Assembly (NCBI GenBank): GCA_013239625.1
Contig: MU053645.1
Span: 186,001-250,000, forward strand
Reading direction: 5' to 3'
From: Lama guanicoe
Lineage: Eukaryota
DNA length: 64,000 nt
In this document: positions 1-29,328 of the stretch, one piece after another
Numbering within the stretch: position 1 is the stretch's first letter
How the letters are laid out: each line of letters starts with the position of its first letter
Program-made: the position numbers and the translations under genes
Notes under the pieces: model-generated
Database searches by the model: none
Told to the model about the DNA's origin: nothing
What the model saw: only the letters and a program-made list of their open reading frames with translations

Positions 1-1240
1 AAAGATTCCTGGAGGGTATTAAAGGAAAATGATTCCTGGTGACTGCATTCTGGACTCCATTAGGAAACTTACCCACAAGCTCAGGGGAAATCTCAACCAC
101 AGATTTCCTGGACTGGTCCAAGGAGACACACAGTGTACTGAGTACACACTCCTCCTCCAACTCTTCTCTGCAGCTGTCTCCCTGTGGTGGCCATGAGAGC
201 GAGATTTGGAAGAAGATAGGGAATATGTGTAGAAAGCAGGCCACGTTTTGTGGGCAAGGGGAAAAGTCCAAAACTGAGCTGTAGTGCCTCCTTCAAGAAA
301 ATAAAAGAGAGGCTATCAGCAGCTGGACTGATGCACTGTAGGATCAAGAGAAGCCATACAAGCTGAAGAATTCTGCCACAAGAGGGAACAGGAAACATGG
401 AGCAGTTGTATCCATACAAGGTCTGAGAGAGCCTCAGAATTTACAGTAGAACTGATGAAAGGTATTTCTACACTGAATGTAGGTAATAAAGATTGGAGGT
501 GGTGACTGTTATTTCAACTGTGAAAACAGCAAAAAAAACTTCAAGTGTCATGGAAAATCAAGGGAACATGACATCACAAAAAGATCACAATAATTTTCCA
601 GTTACCAAACACAAAGATGTGGAGATCTATGACTTACACAATAAAGAATTCAAAAGAACTGTTTTAAGAAAACTCAGTGAGCTACCAAAAAAACACAGAA
701 AGACAATTTAATGAAATCAAGAAAATGATACACAATCAAAATGAGAAATTTAACAAAGAGATAGAAATCATTAAAAAAGAGAACCAAGCATACAGTCTGG
801 AGCTAAAGAATTCAATGAATAAAGTGAAAAAAATGCAATAAAGTACATAAACAGCAAAATAGATCAAAGAGAAGAAAGAATCAATGAAATCAGTGAGACA
901 GAGGACAGGAACAATATAGAGTGGGAAAAAACCCTGTGTGGTCTACGTGAGACTTTCAATAAAACCAATATCCAAATCATTGGAGTTCCAGAAGGCAAAG
1001 AGAGAGGGAAGGGGTCAAAAGCTTATTAAATAAATAATGGCTGAGAACTTCCCACAACTAGGGAGAGATTAAGACAATTCATGAAACTAACAGATCACTC
1101 CATTATTTTAATCCAAAGCAATCTTCTCCAAGACACATGATAATAGAACTGCAAAAAATCAAATACAAAAGGAGAATTTAAAAGGCAGCAAGTGAAAAGA
1201 ACATTTGAATCTACAAAAGAAACTTCATTAGGCTATCAAT
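1..1240 (+). mobile_element. Old L1 (L1M-type) 5' region / decayed ORF1
   Basis: MENQGNMTSQKDHNNFPVTKHKDVEIYDLHNKEFKRTVLRKLSEL resembles an L1 ORF1p N-terminus; A-rich; ggctgagaacttccca motif; frameshifted. Confidence 0.8.
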
Positions 1241-1244
1241 GGAT

Positions 1245-3052
1245 GATTTATTTATTTATTTATATTTTTATTGAATTATAGTCAATTTATAATATTATGT
1301 CAATTTCTGGTGTACAGCACAATTCTTCAGTCATACATGAATATACATATATTGATTTTCATATTGTTTTTCACCATGAGCTACTATAAGATATTGAATA
1401 TATTTCCCTGTGCTATACAGTATAAACTTGTTTATCTATTTTATATATATCCATCAGTATCTGCAAATCTCAAACTCCCAGTCTATCCCTTCCCACTCAC
1501 CTCCCCCTTTGGCAACCACAAGTCTGTATTCTATGTCTGTGAGTCTGTTTCTGTTTTATATATATGTTCATTTGTCTTCTTCTTTTTTTTTTTGATTCCA
1601 CCTATGAGTGATATCATATGGTATTTTTCTTTCTCATTCTGGCCTGCTTCACTTAGAATGACATTCTCCAGGGACATCCATAATGCTGCAAATGGCATTA
1701 TGTTGTCATTTTTATGGCTGAGTAGTATTCCATTGTATAAATATACCACTTCTTCTTTATCTAGTCATCTGTTCATGGACATTTAGGTTGTTTCCATGTC
1801 TTGGCTATTGTAAATAGCGCTGTTACGAACATTAGGGTGCATGTATCTTTTTGAATTAAGGTTCCCTCTGAATATATGCCCAGGAGTGGGATTGCTGTAT
1901 CATATGGTAAGTTTATTTTTAGTCTTTTGAGGAATCTCCATACTGTTTTTCATAACCGCTGCACCAAACTACATTCCCACCAACAGTGTAGGATGGTTCC
2001 ATTTTCTCCACACCCTCTCCAGCATTTATCATTTGTGGACTATGGAATGATGGCCATTCTGACTGGTGTGAGGTGATACCTCATTGTAGCTTTGATTTGC
2101 ATTTCTCTGATAATTAGCAATACTGAGAATTTTTTTATTTGCCTATTGGCCATTCATATGTCTTCATTGGAGGATTGCTTGTTTAGGTTTTCTGCCCATT
2201 TTTTGGATTGAGTAATTTTTTTTCCTTATTAAGTTGCATAAGCTGTTTATATATTCTGGCAATTAAGCCCTTATCAGTCTCATCTTTTGTAAATAGTTTC
2301 TCCCATTCCATAAGTTGTCTTTTTGTTTTGCTTATAGCTTCCTTTGCTGTGCAAAAGCTTATACATTTAATTAGGTCCCATTTGTTTATTTTTGTTTTTA
2401 TTTCTATTGTCTGGGTAGATTACACTAGGAGAATATTGCTAAGATTTATGTCAGATAGTGTTTTGCCTATGTTTTCTTCTGAGAGATTTATAGTGTCTTG
2501 TCTTATATTTAAGTATTTAGCCATTTTGAGTTTATTTTTGTGTATGGTGTGAGGGAGTATTCTAACTTCAGTGATTTACATGCAGCTGTCCATTCAACAC
2601 CATTTGCTGAAGAGATTGTCTTTACTCTATTGTATGTTCTTGCCTCCTTTGTCAAAGATTAATTGACCAAAAGTCTGTGAGTTCATTTCTCAGCTCTCTA
2701 TTCTGTTCCATTAATCCATATGCCTGTTTCTGTACCAATACCATGCTGTTTTGATTACTGTAGCTCTATAATATTGTCTGAATTCTGGGAGGGTTATTCC
2801 TCCAGCTTCATTCTTTTTCTTCAGTATTGCTTTGGCAATTCTGGGTCTTTTGTGATTCCATATAAATTTTAGGATTATTTATTCTAGTTCTATGAAAAAT
2901 GTCCTGGATAATTTGATAGGGATTACATTAAATCTGTAGACATCTTTGGGTACTCTGGCTATTTTAACAATATTAACTCTTCCAATCCAAGGACATGGGA
3001 TATTTTTCCATTTCTTTAAGTCATCTTTAATTTCCTTAGTCAATATTTTGTA
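1245..3052 (-). mobile_element. Younger lineage-specific L1, 5'-truncated (ORF2 C-terminus + 3'UTR + A-tail)
   Basis: (TTTA)n tail at ~1245-1270; minus ORF IMPFAALWMSLENVILSE is typical of the L1 ORF2 end. Confidence 0.9.
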
Positions 3053-3860
3053 GTACGGTCAATTGATTTTCAACATGGGAAATAAGACAATTCAATTGGG
3101 AAAAAATAAGTTCAACAAATAGTTCTAGGACAACTGGATATCCGCATAAAAAAATTAAAATGAGTTGGAATCCTGTCTCACATTATACACAAAAATTTAT
3201 TCAAAATGGATCAAAGACCTAAATATAAGAGCTAAAACTATCAAACTCTTAAAAGAAAACATAAGGATACCACATATGAGTGATATCATATGGTACTTTT
3301 CTTATCCTTCTGGCTTATTTCACTTAGAATTATGATCTTCAAATCCATCCAAGTTGCTGCAAATGGCATTATTATATTCTTTTTTATGGCTGAGTAGTAT
3401 TCCATTGTATAAATATACCACAGCTTCTTTATCCAGTCATCTGTTGATATATTTAAGTTGTTTATGAAAAAGAATATGGAAACAAATATATGTATGTATA
3501 TATAAGACTGAAACATTATGCTGTACAGCAGAAATTGACACACTGTAACTGACTACACTTCAATAAAAAAATTTAAAAAATGTGGAGGAAAGCTCCACGA
3601 CATTGGATTTGGCAATGATTTCTTGGCTATAAAACCAAAAGTACAGTGACTAAAGAAAAAAACGTAAATTGGAGTTCATCAAAATTGAAAACTTCTATGG
3701 TACAAATATCACAAATAAAACCAAATGATTTTCCATGGAAAGGTAGAAAATTTTGTGAATCACATATCTGTTAAATGGCTTGGATCCAGAATGTATAATG
3801 TGTTCTTAAAACACAACAACAACAGAAAGACAAGCAACCAAATTATAAATGGGCAAAAAT
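3053..3860 (+). mobile_element. Old L1 ORF2 fragment interrupted by a 5'-inverted younger L1 at ~3269-3575
   Basis: caaaatggatcaaagacctaaatataagagctaaaacta...aaagctccacgacattggatttggcaatg is continuous across the insertion. Confidence 0.8.
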
Positions 3861-11725: not shown

Positions 11726-12512
11726 CTGATTATTGCCATTATATCTCTTTATATTGCAAACCAGTACCTTTCTTTGATGCCCAATGCAATACCCTGTTTG
11801 TTCTGATATTAATTTAAATCCTCTGCGATCTCTTCCAAATAAGAATTTTTCCTAGTCCTATTAGGATTATTTCATCACTCTGTTATTCCTCATAATACTT
11901 AGGGGGTATAATGATGTCATGCAATTCATTTTCCATTTAAACTCTCTAAATTGGTTAAAATTGATTGCATTACACAAATAATTGTCAAATCTTGATTTTA
12001 TTTTTCTTTCCTGTAAAATGGACATAATAATACCCACTCTGAAGATTAAATGTGATAGTTTCTAAAGTATTTAGTACAAACTCTACCACATAATTAGGTG
12101 TTAAGAAATATAAGTACTTTTTCCCTTCTGTTATTGGATTATGTTGAAAACTATAAAAGGCAGATTTACTCAAGTATTCTTTTTCAAAATATCATATTAA
12201 TATGAACATGAAAGAACTGTGCATCAAAGACAATAATGGAATTTGTAATAAATAAAATAAAGGCTAAGCTTTGCTTTGGATATAATTAGAATTTTTACCT
12301 TTTTGAAAATGATTTATTTTTGAAATCAAATTTCATCATTTATCAAGTCAATGTTTCCAATGCAAATTGCAAAACTGTCTTCATCAATACTATGCCAATT
12401 TGGGAAATATAGCATAAATATACTTACAGTCAGAAAGAAAAGGATATAACTTTCCTTAGTTAATTTTTATCATTTGCTTTATTTTTGTCTAACTGGGTGA
12501 TGTAAGCTATAC

Positions 12513-12652
12513 CTTGTCACCTCGGGTACACAGAAATCTCAGCTTCTTAATTGACCTGCGCTTCAGTTCACTTTCCAGAACCCTTGATTGCAAAGAGCGG
12601 ACTTCAATGGCCTTTTGGCCCCATCCTGTGGTTCGCTGAGAACACTCATAAG
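12513..12652 (-). CDS. NRK: NRK exon ~28, CNH (YECSQRTTGWGQKAIEVRSLQSRVLESELKRRSIKKLRFLCTRGDK)
   Basis: attgtag acceptor, AAG|gtatag donor, 140 nt; GWGxKAIE(V/I)RS and LxFLC motifs of GCK-IV CNH domains. Confidence 0.95.
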
Positions 12653-14339
12653 CTACAATAAAAATTTAAAAATCAGGAAAACACAAAATCTTTCTATCAG
12701 AGATAGAAAATTATAACCACAGTCAACATTTTGATCATTAAGAGGGACATTATTATGGTTCAGGTAAATACATTCTTCTTTTTTTCTCCTTCTAAGTCAT
12801 TTGGCCATTATGCTGCTCAACAGTGGTATTCAAACCAGCTATGTACTATCACCATTGTGACCAATGCTGAATAACCAGATTGCAGTAAATTTTTGTATTC
12901 ATATTCTCCAATTCCACAGAAAAGGTTAAGGATTAATTTGATCCTGTTTGTATAAAGTCAAATCTAGCCACAGCATTCTTTATTTTACAGTCTAGTTGAG
13001 GTATAATATCTTGTAAGGGTTTGCACTTGTGCTTGAGTGACATACATGGAAATCTGACTAACTCTTCAAAACTCAAAAAAGACTTGCTTAAATAATGACT
13101 TTATCAACTTTAATGTAATTCAATTAATTACCATGTTATAAACAGAACCAAAGTTAACTTGATACTGTTAAGCCTTTCTCTAGCTCAGGAAATTTTTATT
13201 GAAATTTTAACTTTTGAACCATGCTTTAAAGCAGAAAACCTAATTATTTAAATAGCCATATAGTCAGCTGGTGCTGTTAAGTATTTTCTGACATAGGTAG
13301 CAGTATGTTTTTCAACAACCATATAGAGCAAAAATTTGTAAATTTAATGCACAATCTACTTGTTGAGTCCAAGTACACAGTTCATATGGCATTACATAAT
13401 TTCCACCTTAATTCTGAAACACATTAATCTGCCACTTAACGTAGCTACTGAGCCAGCTTGCATATGAGATGGAATCCAATGATTTGGTTGGGAATGCTTA
13501 ATGATACTTGCTGTGATTGCTAAGTCTCTCTATATTTGTTTGTAAATTCAAAGTGATGATGTTATTAGTGAAAACACTTATTACATCTCAAGGAAATGTA
13601 AAATTTAGATTGGGGAAATCTGGATCTAGGTTAGTTTTAAATAACAAAGCAGTTGCTTTTAGACAGAAAATGAGAGTAATTGATTTTCTTAATATTAGTG
13701 TTATAATGAAGTCTTTAGTTTACTCTCAAAATACCCTTAATACACAGACCAAAATAATTGTGTTCTCGTAGTGCTATAAATTTATTTTAAACGGAGAGAC
13801 ATACTTTTCAAAATTTAGTGACTTAAAATAGTTTTTTGTTTTAGATCAGAAGTTGTCTTGCTAAAGGACAAGAGCTGGACCAAATGACTTTTTAAGACCT
13901 CTTTGATTCCTACAATTGTCTAGTGTCACAAATATAGGGGTTTAGTTTCCCGTTTGAATCGAATTTTCTTATTCCAATTTCTGATTAATATATTGATCAC
14001 GATCACTGTAAAGGTTAGAACAAGATTCATTATTTTCAGTTTCTTTTGTCCCAGATCTGTCAACTACATTGTAAGCATTTACCTTCTGTCATAAAATGGC
14101 TTTAAAACCTCTGTGAGTTCTTACCTGTTTGAAGAAATTGGAGGAGGTTTTCAGGACAATCCTTAACACTATGTATGCAAAAAGAAAGGATTCTGCAGAT
14201 GCAATGCAAAGTGCCATCATCTCATAATGAAAAAAATGTCCATTAAAAAGAAGTTCTTTCAAACTTAAAGCCACATGAGGATCACATTTATCCATTTTTA
14301 GAGATTTCAGAAGCTTCTGGCTTCTCTATTAACAAACTA

Positions 14340-14530
14340 CTTTTCTCTCTGTCTCTCACCCTACTTCCCTCCTTTCCTTGTTTCCTTCCGTCCTTGCTTG
14401 CTTCCTTCCTTCCTTCCTTCTCTCCTTCCTTTCTTCCTTCTCTCCCTCCTTCCTTCCTTCTCTCTTTGTCTCTCTCTACCTCTCCCTCTCCTTTCTCCTT
14501 TATTTGCTTCATTAAACTTCTCCTTCTTCC
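14340..14530 (+). repeat. Polypyrimidine (CCTT/CT)n low-complexity tract
   Basis: Directly visible; explains spurious ORFs at 14288-14775. Confidence 0.9.
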
Positions 14531-15318
14531 AGGAACATTTATCTTCCACCAAATCATTCTGCTCTAATATTTTTACTGTTCATATGCATTATTCTGTTCC
14601 CTATCTAGAATCACCTCTGCAGTTACAAAGCCTCAGAGACATATACAAGAGTCTCAGGTTATTCAGATTTCCCAGATCAGCAGTCCTCCATTGGTCAGGA
14701 AGGGGAAAAAAATGTCCTGGCCTCATGAAGATGAAAAGGCAGTTTTCTTTATATTGCCATCTGGGCAGTACCTAATAGGGATTCCAGTCAGTCATATTTA
14801 TCTCTTTTGTAAATGAAGGATGATGAAATCTTAGCAACAACCAATGTATCACATATTCAGTTTGTATTTGATTCTTCTCAGGAATATTACTTGCTAAGCA
14901 GAATACTATTGACTATATAAAATGGAAACATTTTGCTCTTCTCTTATGACTATTTGGCAGTCTCCTAAGATAAAGGTAAACCCCCAAAATCAGTGTGATG
15001 GAATGAAGCATTTTCAACATCTGTGTAAAATCTGCAAGCAAAGGGAGTTAAAATAAAATTATAGATTATTGGGGAAAGGAATTACTTTCCTACTGTAATA
15101 ATATGATTATTGAAAATAAACAACTAAAACAACCAAAATCAGTTTATTTGTAGCAGCTTTGTGAATTCATTAAACAGAAGACAAATCCACATACCACCTT
15201 ACAGGGAGTAAGTATGCAGTATCCCAAATTAACCTTATATGCCTTGAGAAAAAAGTGATACTTCAGGAAATAGAAACTTCTCTGGGATCATCTGAAAGGG
15301 GAAAGATTTTATACATAC

Positions 15319-15478
15319 CTACTGAAGATGGTATGTCTTTCCACACTTCAAGGATCTTCTTGAAGAGTTGTTCATTTGCCTCCATAGAAAGGGCTTCCGC
15401 ATTGAAGGTGAGCATCATGCCAATTCCCAAGGAATCAGGTAAAATGATGATATTCTGTGGTATAATGATTTCCAGGGG
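15319..15478 (-). CDS. NRK: NRK exon ~27, CNH (PLEIIIPQNIIILPDSLGIGMMLTFNAEALSMEANEQLFKKILEVWKDIPSSV)
   Basis: ttccag acceptor (alternative in-frame acceptor at 15454), G|gtatgt donor, 160 nt. Confidence 0.9.
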
Positions 15479-18281: not shown

Positions 18282-18431
18282 GTTATTTGGCAGGGTCACA
18301 TCAGACATAACCTCAGATTCTGCATCAATGATGTGATATCCATCTGCTGAGCTGAAGAAAATCTTTAGTCTTTTTTCAGAACCAATAGCCAGGTCAACTG
18401 TCACTGGCTTATGACCAAGTGTTGGAAATAC
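18282..18431 (-). CDS. NRK: NRK exon ~26, CNH (VFPTLGHKPVTVDLAIGSEKRLKIFFSSADGYHIIDAESEVMSDVTLPNN)
   Basis: ctacag acceptor, AAC|gtaaga donor, 150 nt. Confidence 0.95.
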
Positions 18432-18715
18432 CTGTAGATATAAAACCAAATACGGCCAAAAGGCCAAAAATGACACTCTGTCTAAGGTGAATTCCCCACC
18501 CTTTTGCTTAGCAGGTTTATAAAACCCAAAATGATTTTTTTAAATTATAATATATTTAGAGACCTATGTATTAGAACTTTTGTTAGGTCTGTTATTAGAA
18601 TAAGAGCAATTATATTCAGGTTCTAAATATTGAGTTTTCCTTCGAAGACCAAATCTCCAATGATCATAAGAGCCTTGTATGGCTCTGCACTGTTTGCTGT
18701 CTTTAAATTCCTTGC

Positions 18716-18859
18716 CTTGAGCTTCAGCAAATGAAGGAGCTCATCTGGTCTCTTAAACCGGTTAGCTGGATCAGCTGCCTGTATTTTTGCCAGTATTCGT
18801 ATATAGGCTTCATAGGACATGTAGTCTCCTTCGGAGTCTGCTGATTGATCAATGCATAC
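18716..18859 (-). CDS. NRK: NRK exon ~25, symmetric cassette exon with non-canonical AA acceptor and GC donor (VCIDQSADSEGDYMSYEAYIRILAKIQAADPANRFKRPDELLHLLKLK)
   Basis: 144 nt, phase 0-0, open. The peptide matches a segment I recall in human NRK between ESTAIK and VFPTL. Flanks are tttttcattccctaccaa|GTA and AAG|gcaagg. Confidence 0.75.
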
Positions 18860-19094
18860 TTGGTAGGGAATGAAAAAGGCCAGACATGTTAACCTACCAT
18901 AGACTGGATGTACTCTAGGCTCCTATGGTTCCTAGTCCAAAGAAACAAAAAGTCAAACAGGTTTCATTGCCAAGTTCAGGTCACAGTAGAGGACTGGACA
19001 TCACAGGTTTCACCATACTGTAGTCATGAGGTGGAATTCAAGAACTGGAGTGAGGACTTGGACCAGGAACTGTGTATCAGACTAGACAGACTGT

Positions 19095-19222
19095 TGGTAC
19101 TTACCTTCTTTGCTTTCCAGCTCCATACCAGGTAGCTCTGACCAATCAGCAGACACCCAAGAACAAACCCATATCCAAATACTGACAGCTGACCCAAAGC
19201 CCAATTTACGGAGATCAGATCA
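19095..19222 (-). promoter_or_regulatory. Putative editing-site complementary sequence (ECS) for the exon ~25 acceptor
   Basis: Imperfect inverted repeat of 18742-18897. Most differences are G-U compatible on the minus-strand RNA. C19131 lies opposite A18860. Confidence 0.75.
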
Positions 19223-19494
19223 GGGATGTGATCTGTATCAGGACAGACCCAGACTCTCTATATAGTAGTTTGTGCTATTTATAAAAGAACATGTTTATTA
19301 TGTAAATAGACATTGAGGGGCAGTCTTAAAAATTAGCCTGTCTTTATCTTATACATGTGATGTTTTGGCCTACAAAATATACCATGTAAACACATGTGAC
19401 CTAAGATACAAAAGTATTTCATGAATACCTTGCTGGGGTCTATCATGATATGTCATGATTGGTGCTTTGTATAAAAAAAAGTCCATGGACCAAC

Positions 19495-19648
19495 CAGTTC
19501 AAAATCTCCTCAGATGTTTGCTAAAAATATAGATTCCTAGGCCCCACTCCAGACCTACTAATTTGGCCCGGGGTTGAGTCTGAGATCTAAACTTTTAACA
19601 AATGCTCCAGATGATTATTATATACATCTCAGATTAGAAGCTACTGGA
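19495..19648. mobile_element. MER5-like hAT-Charlie MITE
   Basis: aaaatatagattcctaggccccactccagacctact...ttttaacaaatgctccagatgatt. Confidence 0.75.
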
Positions 19649-20452
19649 CTCTATGTAAAGCTGCCAGCTCATTAATCAGTCTTTACTACTATAAAACAAA
19701 TACAAAATAATCCTGTTTATGCTGATTTCTGGAGCATTATAAAAAGATAACAAAGATAAAAATAATCCCCAGTTTATGAGGTGTGATTAAAAAATCATCA
19801 GCAACTTAATTGTTTGGGACACTAAATGGTTACCTTAAGAGGGTGATCCATAGAAGTTCAGTTAAACCATAATAAAAGTGGTAATATTAATTACTCATAA
19901 TCCAAATAAGCCTAACCACCATTCTTTGCAATAGTTCTAGAGAAAAATGTGTTTAGAGATTCAGCTTGGAAGGAATATAGATCCACCCTTTCCTCCCCAT
20001 CCCCATCTATTATAGCCCTGGTAATTAGAGCATAGGCCTTCTCTTCCCTCATCCCTCTACCATTGTCACATCTTTTCTTACCTTCCCTCTGCTCTCCACC
20101 CCCCACTAAGAGAGAACAGGGATGTTCTCAGCTTCAAGTCATTGGGGTGGCACCCAAAACCTGTTTTGGGGGCTTTAGAAGAGAAGGTCTTCATGTTGAC
20201 TACAGGAATTGGGAGTGAGGAAGTGGTGGGGAGGTTCCTGTAAGGGGAAGGGTCAGGGATTTCCCTCACATTCTCCCTTGCTGTGGTGCCTGTGAATTGT
20301 CTAAAAAAGGGTTAAACGATAATTATTGACATGGTATATTCAAATTACATTAACTGTAGAAGAACTGTATATATTTCTGCTACTATATTCCAAAATACTA
20401 TTCTGTTTACAATTTCTCAAAAGAAAAAACAAAGGATAAGCAGACCACTCAC

Positions 20453-20553
20453 TTTAATAGCAGTGCTTTCGTCAAAGGACTTTGGTGCCCATGCATACAG
20501 GTGAATTGATGATTTCAAAGCAATTGCAATATACGTTGTTTCTTCATGTTGGA
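20453..20553 (-). CDS. NRK: NRK exon ~24, CNH (QHEETTYIAIALKSSIHLYAWAPKSFDESTAIK)
   Basis: ctgtag acceptor, AAA|gtgagt donor, 101 nt; YAWAPK CNH motif. Confidence 0.95.
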
Positions 20554-20739
20554 CTACAGTGATAAAACACAAAGAAGTAGCAATACCACAGAGTTAACAA
20601 GAACACTCAAGCATTTGTATTTGTCATTGAAAATATCATAAGCACAATGTAAGAGCATAGATCATATATTTTTAGAAAAGCTATTTGGCTACAATTTGAT
20701 GCCCAAAAGAAGGTGACAAAAATAGTGTAAAGTTTTATG

Positions 20740-22392
20740 GAGTATATACATTAGCCTTCAAGAACACTCTAAATTGTATACTGAAAATTACAGAACATTG
20801 CTGAAAGAAATTAAAGAAAACCTAAATAAATATAAACACTTTCTCTATTTATGGATAGGTAGACTTATCATTAAGAGGACAATACTATCCAAAGTGATCT
20901 ACAGATTCAGTGTACACAGTCTCTATTGAAATTCCAATGGTCTCTTATGCAGAAATGGAAATGCTGATCCTAAAATTCACATGGAATTGGAAGAGGCCTC
21001 AAATAGCCAAAACAATCTTGAAAATCGAAGTTGGAAAGCAAAGTTGGAAGACTTATACTTCCCAATTTTGAAACTTAACTACAACCTATAGTAATCAAAA
21101 CAGTGTTGTACTGACATAAGGATAAGCATATAGATCAATGGAACAGAATTAATATTCTACAAATAAATCTATACATCTATGGTTGGTGGTGCCAAGACCA
21201 TTCAATAGGGAAAGAATAATCTCTTCGACAAATGGTACTGGGACAACTGAATATTCACATACAAAAGAATGAGTTGTGCCTCTTACTTCATTCAATATAA
21301 AAAATTAACTCGAAATGGATCGAGGAGCTAAATGTAACAGCTAAAACTATAGAACTCTTAGAGGTAAATATAGGAATAAACCTTCATGGCACTAGATTCT
21401 TATATTTGACACCAAAAGCATAAGGAACAAAAGAAAAAGATAAATTGGGTTTCATTAAAATGAAGACTTCTATGTATTAAACAACACTATCAACACAGTG
21501 AAAAAAACAATGTATGGAATGGGAACAAATATTTGTACATCATATATCTGATAAGGGTCTAGTATCCAGAATATATGAAGAATGCTTACAACTCAACAAC
21601 AAAAAGGTAAATAACCCAAGGAAGATATACAAATGGCCAATAAACACTTGAAAAGTTGCTCAACAACATTATCCATCAGGGAAATGCAAATCAAACTAGA
21701 ATGAGAAGCCACTTTACACCCACTTGGATGGCTAGAATCAAAAGACAAACATCTACAAGTGTTGACAAGGATAAAGAAAAAAATGGAATCTTCATACTTA
21801 TGGCAATGTAAAATAGTGCAGCTACTTTTAATAACAGTCTGGCAGTACTATCCAAGAGAAAAGAAATCATGCATTCCCATGTACAAAAACATGTATGAAA
21901 ATGTTCATAGCAGCATTATTCCTAATAACCAAAAAGTGGAAAAAGTGCAAATGTATAAAAAATGTATAAAAAATTCAATAAACAAAAGGTGATATATCTA
22001 TACAATGCAAATCTACTCAGCAATAAACAGGAAATACTGATACATGTTGTACAGGTCAGAGCATGGATGAATCTTGAAAACATTATGTCAAGTGATAGAA
22101 GCTTGCCACAAAAGACTATATACTGTATGATTCCATTGGAATCATGGAGAAAAGACAAATCTATAGCAAAGATAGTAGATCAGCGGTTACTTAGAGCTGT
22201 GAGGGGAATGAGGTAAGAGGAATGAAATGTGGAGTGACTGCTAATGGCTGTGAGGTCTCTTTTTGCAATGATGAAAATTAGATCATGGTGATGGTTACAC
22301 AACTCAATAAACATACCAAAATCACTGAATTGTATAGTTTAAACAGGTATATTTTATGGTATGTAAATCATTTGAACAGAATTTTTTAATTA
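20740..22392 (+). mobile_element. L1M (L1MB/MC-like) ORF2 3' part and 3'UTR
   Basis: aaatagccaaaacaatcttgaaaa; gcatggatgaatcttgaaaacattatg; gatcatggtgatggttacacaactc; A-rich end. Confidence 0.88.
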
Positions 22393-26417: not shown

Positions 26418-28193
26418 CAGATGGGGGTCAGGATCAAGAAGGTGTAGTAGGAAGACCCTGAACACATCTTTTTCTATGGGCACACCAATATCACCACTAT
26501 TTACAGAGCAACTATCTATGAGAATGACCTGAAGACTAGCAGAAAAGATTTTCCACAAATAAAGATATAAAGAAGGAGCCACAAGATGGGAAGGAATGGC
26601 AGAGATGTGTTATAGTAAGGACCCACACCCCAAGGTCAATGACTCACAAACAAGAGGGATATCATAATCACAGAGGTCCTCTTCAAGGAGCAAGGGGTCC
26701 AAGCCCCGCATTGGGTTCCCCAGCCTAGGGGTCTGACATTGGGAAGATGAGCTCCCAGAACATCTGACTTTGAAAGTCAAGTGGGGCTTATATCCAGAAA
26801 AGCCAGAGGGCCATAGGAAAAAGAAACTCCACTCTTAAAGGGCATGTACACAATCTCACATGCTCCAACTTCTAGGGCAGACGGAGTAGTTTGAAAGGTC
26901 CCTGGGTCAGACCCACTTGATCTTGGAGAATCCCCCTGGAGAGGCAGAAGGCAGCTGGGACACCCCCAGGGTACTGAGACACTGGGAGCAACCATTTTGG
27001 GGATTTTGTTCTACCACGCTGACATCAGTCCTGACAAGCACCATTTTTGAATCCTCCCCCTTGCCTATTAGCACTGGAAGCTTACCTCATCCACTTACAG
27101 GGCCCCAACAATTGCATACCACCAGACTGCACAGCCATTTGCATAGGAAGACTGCCCTGCCCACAAGTGAACCCACAGCAGCTGTGAATTGCCAGGCTGC
27201 ATAGTCAGTCATGTGAGGAGTCTACACTACCCAGAAGCAAGCTGGCAGCAGTTGTGTGGCACTGAGCTACATAGCCAGCCATGCAGGGAGTAGCAGGCCC
27301 ATAACAATCACATAAGGCAGAGCCTTATAGCCAGCCAGGATAGGGAACAGCCCAACCTACCAACGCACACACAGTATTTGGTCCTAATACAACAGAAACA
27401 CACAGCTCACATAGGAGACACCCCTGGAGCATCTAGTTCTGGTGGCCAGAGGGGAGTATGCTGCTGGACCCCACAAAACATCTCCTACATAAGGCTACTT
27501 CTCCAAGATGGGAAGATACAACAGACCTACCTAAAACATAGAAGTGAAAACAGAGAATTATGCAAAATGAGGAGACTAAGGAGTATGTTTCAAATGAAAG
27601 TACAAGATAAAATATCAGAAAAAGAAATAAATAAAATGAGATAAGCAATCTACCTGATAAAGAGTTCAAGATAATAATTTTTAAAGATGTTCACAAACTG
27701 AGAAGAATGGATGAACAGAAAATTTCAACAGAGCTAGAAAATATGAAAAAGAACCAATCAGAGATAAAGAAACAACAGAAATAAAAATTAAAGGAATTAC
27801 AAGTAGATTACATAATACAAAAGAATGGATCAGTGATCTGGAAGACAGAGTAGCGAAAATCACCCAAGATGAACAGAAAAAAAGAAGAAAGAGTGTAAAA
27901 AAAATGAGGATAGTTTAAGGACCTCTGGGACAATATCAAGCATACTAACATCCATGTAATAGGGGTCCCATAAAGGGAAGAGAGAGAGAGAAAGGGGCAG
28001 AGAACTTATTTGAAGATGTAATAGCTGAAAATTTCCCTAACCTGGGGAAAGAGACAGATACCAGGTCCAAGAAGTAGATAGTTATTTGAGTTATAATAGT
28101 GATCATTTCATAAAGTATTTAAATGTCCAATCATTATGCTGCACACCTGAATCTAACATAATATTGTACATCAACTATGTTTCAATTTAAAAA
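26418..28193 (+). mobile_element. Internally deleted L1: 5'UTR + partial ORF1 joined to 3'UTR/polyA
   Basis: 5' end gggggtcaggatcaagaaggtg; decayed ORF1 (MRRLRSMFQMKVQDKISEKE); tail ttatgctgcacacctgaatctaacataatattgtacatcaactat; flanking aattcactt repeats. Confidence 0.8.
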
Positions 28194-29328
28194 AATTCAC
28201 TTTAAAACTCTGTGGCATTTTTCCCCTTAGCCTTAGACACAGAAGGAAATTAGCAAACTAATGTAAGAGAAAGCACTTTACTGTCTTCAATCTACTTGGA
28301 CAACATTTATTCTCCAAGCGTATAAGGATAAAAGCCGTGTCTTGGTCTTCATTTTCCCACCCTGTCCTTTACCAGTTCTCTAAGTAACACCCAGTGACAG
28401 GTATAGGAACTGCATCTTCTTCCCACAAGGGAATCAGAGAGGGAAGGAAAAGTATAATAAATTTTGACTATAATCTTTAGTTTTTCAAATTATAAAACTA
28501 CAAGTTATTAAAATGAGTTACTGGATATTAAGTTCATCTCTGGGTAGTTGCCTGTCTGAAATGATAATGAAATAAACTTGCTTTCTGGTTATCTGACACA
28601 TTATATTAGTAGAACTTTGAGGCATGCTTTTTTCCTAAGTTGTTTAATCCACCTAACTACAATGTTTGCTACACGGATCTACATTTAATTTAAAATTCTG
28701 TCCTCTGTTTAACCATACATTAAGCAAAATCTATGAAATTGCAGGTTGGAGGTTGGCATTTACTCTGGATTTTTCCCTTCCTTGCATTAATTTATTCTGC
28801 TTCATTTATGATTAAGACTAGCTTGAAGTAAAATATTGTCTCAGCATTACCAATGTGGTTATAATTCTTCTGGAAAGAAAAAGTCTATCAAATTTAAGAT
28901 ATTATAGAATGAACTTTCTCTACAAATCCACAAGATTTTTTAAAAACAAGAATCTAAAGAAATCATTCTTGTAATATCTCATTAGGTATTACATGCTGCA
29001 CACTACCCTAAATCTCTGAATTAAAAACAGTAAGCTTGAATTTTCAAATAATCATAACCTAGTCCAATTTTATCTTTTAGCCAAGTTAATTCAGTTTATA
29101 AAGAAAAACAGAATAAAAAGGGGAGGGAGCAATACAAACATCAAACTGTATTGAGTGAAAATAAATCAGCAAATATATAAATAAATAAATAAATAAGCAA
29201 ATTAACTACTCTCTATACATATTGGGAATGGTTTGTCAATAGCAAACACATGTTTTACATCTATGATTTTTCACAGGTTTGCTATATAGATAAAAATACA
29301 TTCTTTAGAAAACAACTCAGAAACTCAC

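Follow-up and report, generated by a model that had tools for sequence, protein, structure and literature searches.

How can an exon be spliced into a messenger RNA when the genome gives AA where its acceptor should read AG? The question is raised by a 64,000-nucleotide (nt) stretch of guanaco (Lama guanicoe) DNA (assembly GCA_013239625.1, contig MU053645.1, positions 186,001 to 250,000; the window, to which all coordinates below refer), which holds on its minus strand most of a eutherian NRK (Nik-related kinase) gene. The gene is X-linked and encodes a kinase that restrains placental growth. An earlier note on the window had proposed that one NRK exon lies in a fold-back in which an adenosine deaminase acting on RNA (ADAR) converts an AA acceptor to AI, and that this editing gates a 48-amino-acid (aa) insert in the NRK CNH domain. 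The analysis presented here supports that account, and we consider it probable that a hairpin forms in the NRK transcript, that ADAR edits the adenosine at 18860 (A18860) and exon 25 is included, and that unedited transcripts skip the exon. Known exons with a splice site that relies on RNA editing are very few, and the ADAR2 transcript and primate Alu exons are the usual cases.

NRK exon 25 and its genomic AA acceptor

Using three full-length NRK proteins as tblastn queries, 25 NRK exon blocks were placed in the window, running from 63778 down to 10737. Over nine CNH-domain exons the nearest annotated NRK was that of Camelus ferus (P0003), with a mean identity of 0.998. The exon of interest is the fifth from the NRK 3' end on this map and is therefore counted as exon 25. 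The elements around it are as follows, with splice junctions marked by a slash.

20453..20553, minus strand: NRK exon 24, 101 nt, ending ...GCT ATT AAA and followed by the donor gtgagt; its peptide QHEETTY...STAIK matches NRK proteins
18860..20452, minus strand: intron 24, 1593 nt, genomic GT...AA; the human counterpart is also GT-AA, of 1830 nt
18888..18892, minus strand: candidate branch point UUAAC, with branch A18889 29 nt before A18860 (chosen by eye, unscored)
18862..18879, minus strand: polypyrimidine tract CCTTTTTCATTCCCTACC, 16/18 pyrimidines, within the predicted duplex (sequence and fold)
18860..18861, minus strand: genomic AA at the in-frame acceptor; A18860, with A on its 5' side and G on its 3' side, is the proposed editing site (sequence and fold)
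18859..18860, minus strand: genome-encoded AG, shifted 1 base downstream from the in-frame acceptor; first AG past the candidate branch point (list of AG dinucleotides)
18716..18859, minus strand: NRK exon 25, 144 nt, 48 aa, phase 0-0; 123/144 nt (18737-18859) lie in the duplex span
18714..18715, minus strand: GC donor of intron 25, AAG/gcaagg; the human GC-AG junction appears in Fig. S4 of Parada et al. 2014
18282..18431, minus strand: NRK exon 26, 150 nt, acceptor ctacag/G (tblastn map and sequence)

On the transcript strand the acceptor reads ...CCTTTTTCATTCCCTACCAA/GTATGC, with A18861 and A18860 closing intron 24 and G18859 opening exon 25. The in-frame exon behind a genomic AA described in the earlier note is borne out by both the sequence and the translation: 18716-18859 is stop-free in phase 0-0 and encodes the 48 aa VCIDQSADSEGDYMSYEAYIRILAKIQAADPANRFKRPDELLHLLKLK (VCIDQ...LLKLK), and an exon 24-26 junction would also stay in frame. 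No AG dinucleotide occurs between 18894 and 18860, and the acceptor is preceded by a branch point and tract, both judged by eye and unscored. With an AA acceptor and a GC donor, both splice sites of exon 25 are genomically non-GT-AG.

The 48-aa peptide is 96% identical to human NRK, in which 48 residues likewise separate STAIK and VFPTL. Judged by gene position, peptide and flanking intron types, all of which agree, the window exon is the orthologue of human NRK exon 25. No further copies of the exon peptide were found in the guanaco assembly, and a metagenome scan with the same peptide returned 596 pattern stretches and 0 relatives.

The editing event published for human NRK

Contrary to the suggestion in the earlier note that the event might be undescribed, an editing-dependent NRK acceptor is already known in human. 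It was reported by Parada et al. 2014 (Nucleic Acids Res 42:10564, PMC4176328; all statements on this paper and on PMC8857918 refer to the portions of their text available to us), where NRK heads the table of non-canonical splice sites subject to editing and is listed as 'GT-AA > GT-AG'. The human GT-AA intron (chrX:105188033-105189863, hg19; 1830 nt) is annotated in GENCODE v17 and is supported by 5 cDNAs, 1 expressed sequence tag and 69 reads, with reads in ovary, testes and kidney. Its junction was validated by reverse transcription PCR (RT-PCR) and Sanger sequencing, with RT-PCR clones shown, and A>G mismatches at the AA were found in RNA-seq of poly(A)-minus RNA from human umbilical vein endothelial cells (HUVEC). 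Fig. S4 of that paper gives junction counts of GT-AA[69], GC-AG[42] for the next junction and GT-AG[180] for skipping. Use of the GT-AA junction, the A>G signal and skipping of the exon have all been observed in human by others (PMC4176328), and the case is restated in a 2024 review (PMC11019749).

The human cassette exon (PMC4176328, PMC11019749) and the guanaco exon are alike in the GT-AA intron, the in-frame cassette exon, the GC-AG intron and the in-frame skipping. The cassette exon is given as 42 nt in PMC4176328 and in the later review, while it measures 144 nt (48 aa) here; the published figure is probably a slip, 42 being equal to the read count printed at the GC-AG junction in Fig. 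S4.

The terms double-stranded, dsRNA, hairpin and complementary had 0 occurrences in a word search of the available text of Parada et al. (PMC4176328), and while no double-stranded partner is given for the site in that text, a partner arm was found in the guanaco intron. A literature search returned no second paper on NRK editing; most subscription journals and supplementary tables lay outside its scope, and catalogues of editing sites may list the site. The present analysis adds, with modest novelty, the complementary arm, the assignment of the exon as exon 25, an AG that would shift the frame and the trace that the junction has left in gene models; the hairpin appears to be undescribed.

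The inverted partner arm in intron 24

The upstream intron repeats the acceptor and exon 25 imperfectly and in inverted orientation, and the following elements were delimited by alignment and by folding of the transcribed strand.

19114..19258, minus strand: editing-complementary arm inside intron 24, resembling acceptor and exon 25 in degenerate, inverted form (alignment and fold)
19131..19131, minus strand: C (transcript sense) opposing A18860 in a 1x1 loop, with flanking pairs of probability (P) 0.976 and 0.987
19057..19070, minus strand: 5' arm of an inner stem, joined to 18928-18941 by 14 pairs of the minimum-energy fold (18935-19063, P 0.979)
18928..18941, minus strand: 3' arm of the inner stem (minimum-energy fold)

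A repeat search returned three pairs of arms, namely 18829-18851/19139-19161 (87%), 18788-18810/19165-19187 (78%) and 18767-18786/19177-19196 (85%). In gapped local alignment, with the plus strand of 19105-19265 as target, the exon arm 18876-18740 matched the plus-strand partner 19114-19223 with a score of 61 and identity in 84/106 columns. This score was compared with three backgrounds: shuffles of the partner (n=300) gave a mean of 19.2 (standard deviation 3.2) and a maximum of 35, 1572 further windows taken from both strands of the 64 kb a maximum of 33, and the remaining 24 NRK exons, tested with 1.5 kb of sequence on either side, a mean of 29.4 (standard deviation 4.1) and a maximum of 41. 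The inverted-repeat match is far above chance, and exon 25 is the sole bearer of such a partner among the window's 25 NRK exons.

Folding of the minus-strand RNA of 18700-19260 gave -190.1 kcal/mol (z -4.40), a value equalled by 0/100 shuffles, while the plus strand of the same interval gave -173.7 kcal/mol (z -2.67), so that the transcribed strand is more stable by 16.4 kcal/mol. In the predicted fold the outer imperfect duplex comprises 96 pairs between 18737-18876 and 19114-19258, including a 17-bp helix of 18852-18836 with 19138-19154 that starts 8 nt from A18860. The paired blocks quoted in the earlier note were each recovered in the sequence or the fold, and its inner stem of 18928-18940 with 19058-19070 reappears one pair longer. 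A18860 is predicted to be unpaired (P 0.996) opposite C19131, as the note had claimed, and the neighbours of this mismatch are paired (A18861-U19130, P 0.976; G18859-C19132, P 0.987), with pairs along 18865-18857 at P 0.94-1.0. When G was used as a stand-in at 18860, the minimum free energy moved from -190.1 to -196.7 kcal/mol. In the alignment, the only A:C mismatch with the A on the exon side within 100 nt of the acceptor is the one at position -1. A site-selective ADAR substrate holds its target adenosine in an imperfect but stable duplex some tens of bp long, as the predicted fold does for A18860. ADARs favour an A opposite C, with U or A as 5' neighbour and G as 3' neighbour; A18860 lies opposite C19131, with A18861 on its 5' side and G18859 on its 3' side. 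The candidate branch point UUAAC falls in a 6-bp local hairpin (18877-18895, minus strand) between the outer duplex and the inner fold.

The note's description of the partner as a dedicated, non-repeat editing-complementary sequence agrees with the structure, as the fold-back is single copy: 19100-19260 and 18700-19300 each match only themselves in the 2.05-Gb guanaco assembly. An origin from a dispersed repeat or transposon was accordingly rejected as far as a search of the animal's own genome reaches, given that old diverged copies could escape it. A microRNA or other known RNA family was likewise rejected: the one Rfam match, to mir-144, lies outside the fold-back (19365-19463, minus strand) and is judged to be at chance level, with 18.8 bits and E 0.29 where the gathering score is 60.

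On the plus strand (19086-19265) the arm keeps an open 59-codon frame whose product still resembles exon 25 (SSDQSAD..., HIQILTADPKPNLRR). Its translation ...SSDQSADTQEQTHIQILTADPKPNLRR is a recognisably decayed copy of CIDQSADSEGD...YIRILAKIQAADPANRFKR. A search of the protein collection for relatives of the 59-aa translation gave no candidate.

Signature of the junction in annotated NRK proteins

The cross-species set consisted of 59 annotated NRK proteins (P0002-P0060), selected by the presence of the exon 25 peptide. In 59/59 the identity of exon 25 to the window was 92-100%, and the mean of 0.972, a value biased upward by the selection, compares with 0.866-0.982 for the other eight CNH exons. 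On these protein sequences exon 25 is as conserved as its neighbours, real and under constraint. The models join it to the upstream sequence in five ways.

Exact K-V-C junction (...AIK/VC[IV]DQ): 21/59 models
K-V-[I/M]-C, with one added residue: 34/59 models (31 V-I, 3 V-M)
Exon 23 joined directly to L-C, exon 24 being dropped: 2/59 models
Read-in from the upstream intron: 1/59 models
Start at an internal AG: 1/59 models

Both of the more frequent departures can be reproduced in the window. A donor 4 nt downstream of the authentic one (GTGA/gt) combined with the AG at 18860-18859 gives AAA GTG ATA TGC, or K-V-I-C, and splicing of exon 23 to this AG yields L-C. The 36/59 models of these two kinds use an AG made of the intron's position -1 and the exon's position +1, and their genomes would therefore carry A at -1, as read from the protein strings alone. 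They include elephants, dugong, aardvark, golden mole, tenrec, lemurs, gibbon, tarsier, owl monkey and rodents, and further bears, cats, hyena, seal, pangolin, bats, rhinoceros, shrew, colugo and cetaceans. An assembly error or private mutation at the AA is accordingly unlikely, the human intron also being GT-AA and these 36/59 models implying A at -1.

At the other end of the exon the LLKLK/VFPTL junction was present in 36/59 proteins, the remaining proteins differing in the residues of the next exon. Four of the 59 models run beyond LLKLK into intron-like residues (ARNLKT..., ASYLKT...), a read-through that fits a non-GT donor in those species too.

The exact K/VC form in 21/59 proteins, together with the human cDNA and RT-PCR evidence (PMC4176328), indicates that the genomic AA stands at a junction used in mature mRNA. 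The departure of the other 38/59 models is most likely the result of annotation being forced onto canonical splice sites. The practical consequence is that the majority of automatic NRK gene models would be wrong at the exon 24-25 junction.

Proposed mechanism

Transcription of NRK proceeds from high to low coordinates, and the complementary arm (19114-19258) would therefore be made first. As the acceptor and exon 25 (18876-18737) emerge, the arms would pair into an imperfect duplex of about 96 bp that offers A18860 as a lone A:C mismatch with a 3' G. Deamination of A18860 by ADAR would convert CAAG/U to CAI/GU, which would serve as a strong in-frame CAG-like acceptor followed by G, with loss of the frame-shifting AG at 18860-18859. 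The 144-nt exon would then be included, adding a 48-aa two-helix insert to the NRK CNH beta-propeller, while in the absence of editing exon 24 would be joined in frame to exon 26. The sequence, the predicted duplex with its mismatch and the single-copy status are observed in the guanaco itself; for this species we infer that editing takes place, which ADAR is responsible, in what order the steps occur and what becomes of unedited transcripts.

The AG that overlaps the editing site bears on this scheme. Its use would give a 143-nt exon whose frame stops inside exon 25 (...MSSFIC). It follows from the sequence that editing of A18860 would abolish this out-of-frame AG in the same step that makes the in-frame acceptor.

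Several observations weigh against an editing-dependent exon 25. Some GT-AA and AT-AG sites lack evidence of editing in the text of Parada et al. (PMC4176328). A duplex over the tract and acceptor should itself hinder splicing. The human A>G signal at -1 could be mimicked by a 1-nt overhang of spliced reads if human exon 24 ends in G. Such an artefact would yield no G in the guanaco because exon 24 ends in A here, which, compared with human NRK, removes the alignment ambiguity at -1. An identity of 79% between the arms is close to what one of them might retain after decaying neutrally from the time of the eutherian ancestor, by an estimate that was not computed. Lastly, the earlier note had read a strand bias of G-U wobbles as a mark of selection on RNA structure. 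The direction of that bias held, with 10 alignment transitions on the minus strand giving G.U and 3 giving A.C, and with 14 G.U pairs in the fold of the transcript strand and 5 in that of the opposite strand; its strength did not (binomial p 0.09), and it is suggestive only.

AA acceptors are very poor for splicing. Direct use of this one without editing, with the hairpin irrelevant or only modulating access to the site, is nevertheless conceivable given the GT-AA and AT-AG sites that show no editing (PMC4176328) and a human A>G signal that might be a junction-overhang artefact. We regard it as improbable, given the A:C mismatch exactly at -1 in a long duplex unique to exon 25 and a real AG one base downstream that would compete. 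About equally improbable is that the fold-back acts chiefly as a mask which sets the rate of exon 25 skipping, with editing a by-product or a secondary tuning. The duplex of 18876-18737 does take in the acceptor with its tract and 123 nt of exon 25, and human skipping reads exceed those for inclusion (GT-AG[180] against GT-AA[69] and GC-AG[42]; PMC4176328), but masking leaves both the splicing at AA and the lone A:C at the acceptor unexplained. Masking is also compatible with editing-dependent inclusion and not exclusive of it, and the duplex probably lowers exon 25 inclusion as well, which fits the human excess of skipping reads.

Inclusion through a canonical GT-AG pair, that is the donor 4 nt downstream (GTGA/gt) with the AG at 18860-18859 to give K-V-I-C without editing, could draw on the presence of both sites in the window and of their equivalent in 34/59 gene models. 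It is nonetheless very unlikely: the human cDNAs, RT-PCR and Sanger sequencing back the exact GT-AA junction (PMC4176328), 21/59 models carry K-V-C, the shifted donor GTGA/GTGGTC is by eye much weaker than the authentic AAA/GTGAGT, and the added residue looks like the workaround of a predictor that allows canonical sites only. Least credible of all is a reading in which an old local inverted duplication left the arm behind as a neutral relic with no present role. While the arms are gapped and only 79% identical and the G.U bias is not significant, editing in human needs double-stranded RNA around the site, the only exon-side A:C within 100 nt of the acceptor falls at -1, and the fold is better on the transcribed strand.

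Comparison with known edited splice sites

Exon pairing with a dedicated intronic complementary sequence is found at the GRIA2 Q/R and R/G sites, where editing precedes intron removal. Editing at GRIA2 alters a codon and the partner lies in the downstream intron, whereas the NRK target is a splice-site base and its partner lies upstream. Closer in outcome is the ADARB1 (ADAR2) transcript, in which, as reportedly described by Rueter, Dawson and Emeson in 1999, self-editing at site -1 turns an intronic AA into AI within an intron-borne duplex and creates a new 3' splice site. That acceptor is said to add 47 nt and shift the frame, resulting in negative autoregulation. The NRK case likewise involves an AA to AI acceptor, but here a whole in-frame exon would depend on it and the partner is an inverted copy of the exon. 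NARF exon 8 (Lev-Maor et al. 2007, as described in PMC11019749) is an Alu exonisation that needs editing of intronic double-stranded RNA. Its duplex derives from inverted Alu repeats and is primate-specific, in contrast to the NRK fold-back, which is single copy, and to its exon, which is present across eutherians.

Origin and significance

NRK exons 4, 12 and 25 have been described as eutherian-only and without counterpart elsewhere, the inserted exon sequences having no match in a transposable-element library (Lestari et al. 2022, PMC8857918). The same paper assigns the CNH domain to NRK exons 21-29. The exon 25 product, absent from chicken NRK, has been modelled as a flexible insert of two alpha-helices, placed on the side of the beta-propeller that faces away from the membrane-binding basic clusters (bioRxiv 10.1101/2023.12.27.573405). 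A sequence search of the PDB with a 253-aa NRK fragment gave 0 matches, and the position of the insert in the CNH fold is for that reason taken from this preprint. Editing or alternative splicing of exon 25 is unmentioned in the available text of PMC8857918, where the only match to 'splic' is a reference title, and in 10.1101/2023.12.27.573405, where there is none. The preprint of the 'new exon' paper in Placenta 2021 concerns exon 4, not exon 25.

In the acceptor region the arm reads taccaGgta where the exon side reads taccaAgta. This difference fits an inverted duplication of an AG-bearing unit of acceptor plus exon and a later mutation of G to A in the exon-side copy, for which the hairpin could compensate through editing. 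We tentatively suggest, as a possibility we would not yet favour, that exon 25 and its arm arose in one local inverted duplication on the eutherian stem, that the arm retains the ancestral AG, that an ADAR-recruiting hairpin let the G-to-A change be tolerated, and that inclusion has been editing-dependent for some 100 million years. If true, NRK would hold a eutherian-wide, repeat-independent, editing-gated exon, and ADAR activity would be tied to placental NRK isoform choice. Bringing together the threads of editing, exon 25 and hairpin raises the question of whether ADAR sets the ratio of two CNH isoforms.

Other features of the window

A long low-complexity CT-rich stretch (14247-14775), in the intron flanked by exons 15317-15478 and 12498-12656, carries open frames on both strands with SFLPS... 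and KEGRKE... repeats. Frames resembling fragments of LINE-1 ORF2 (such as WIGRLIIK..., YNGILLS...) occur on both strands at about 700-3600, 20700-22300 and 27300-28200; we take these for common interspersed repeats, situated in NRK introns and past the 3' limit of the coding sequence.

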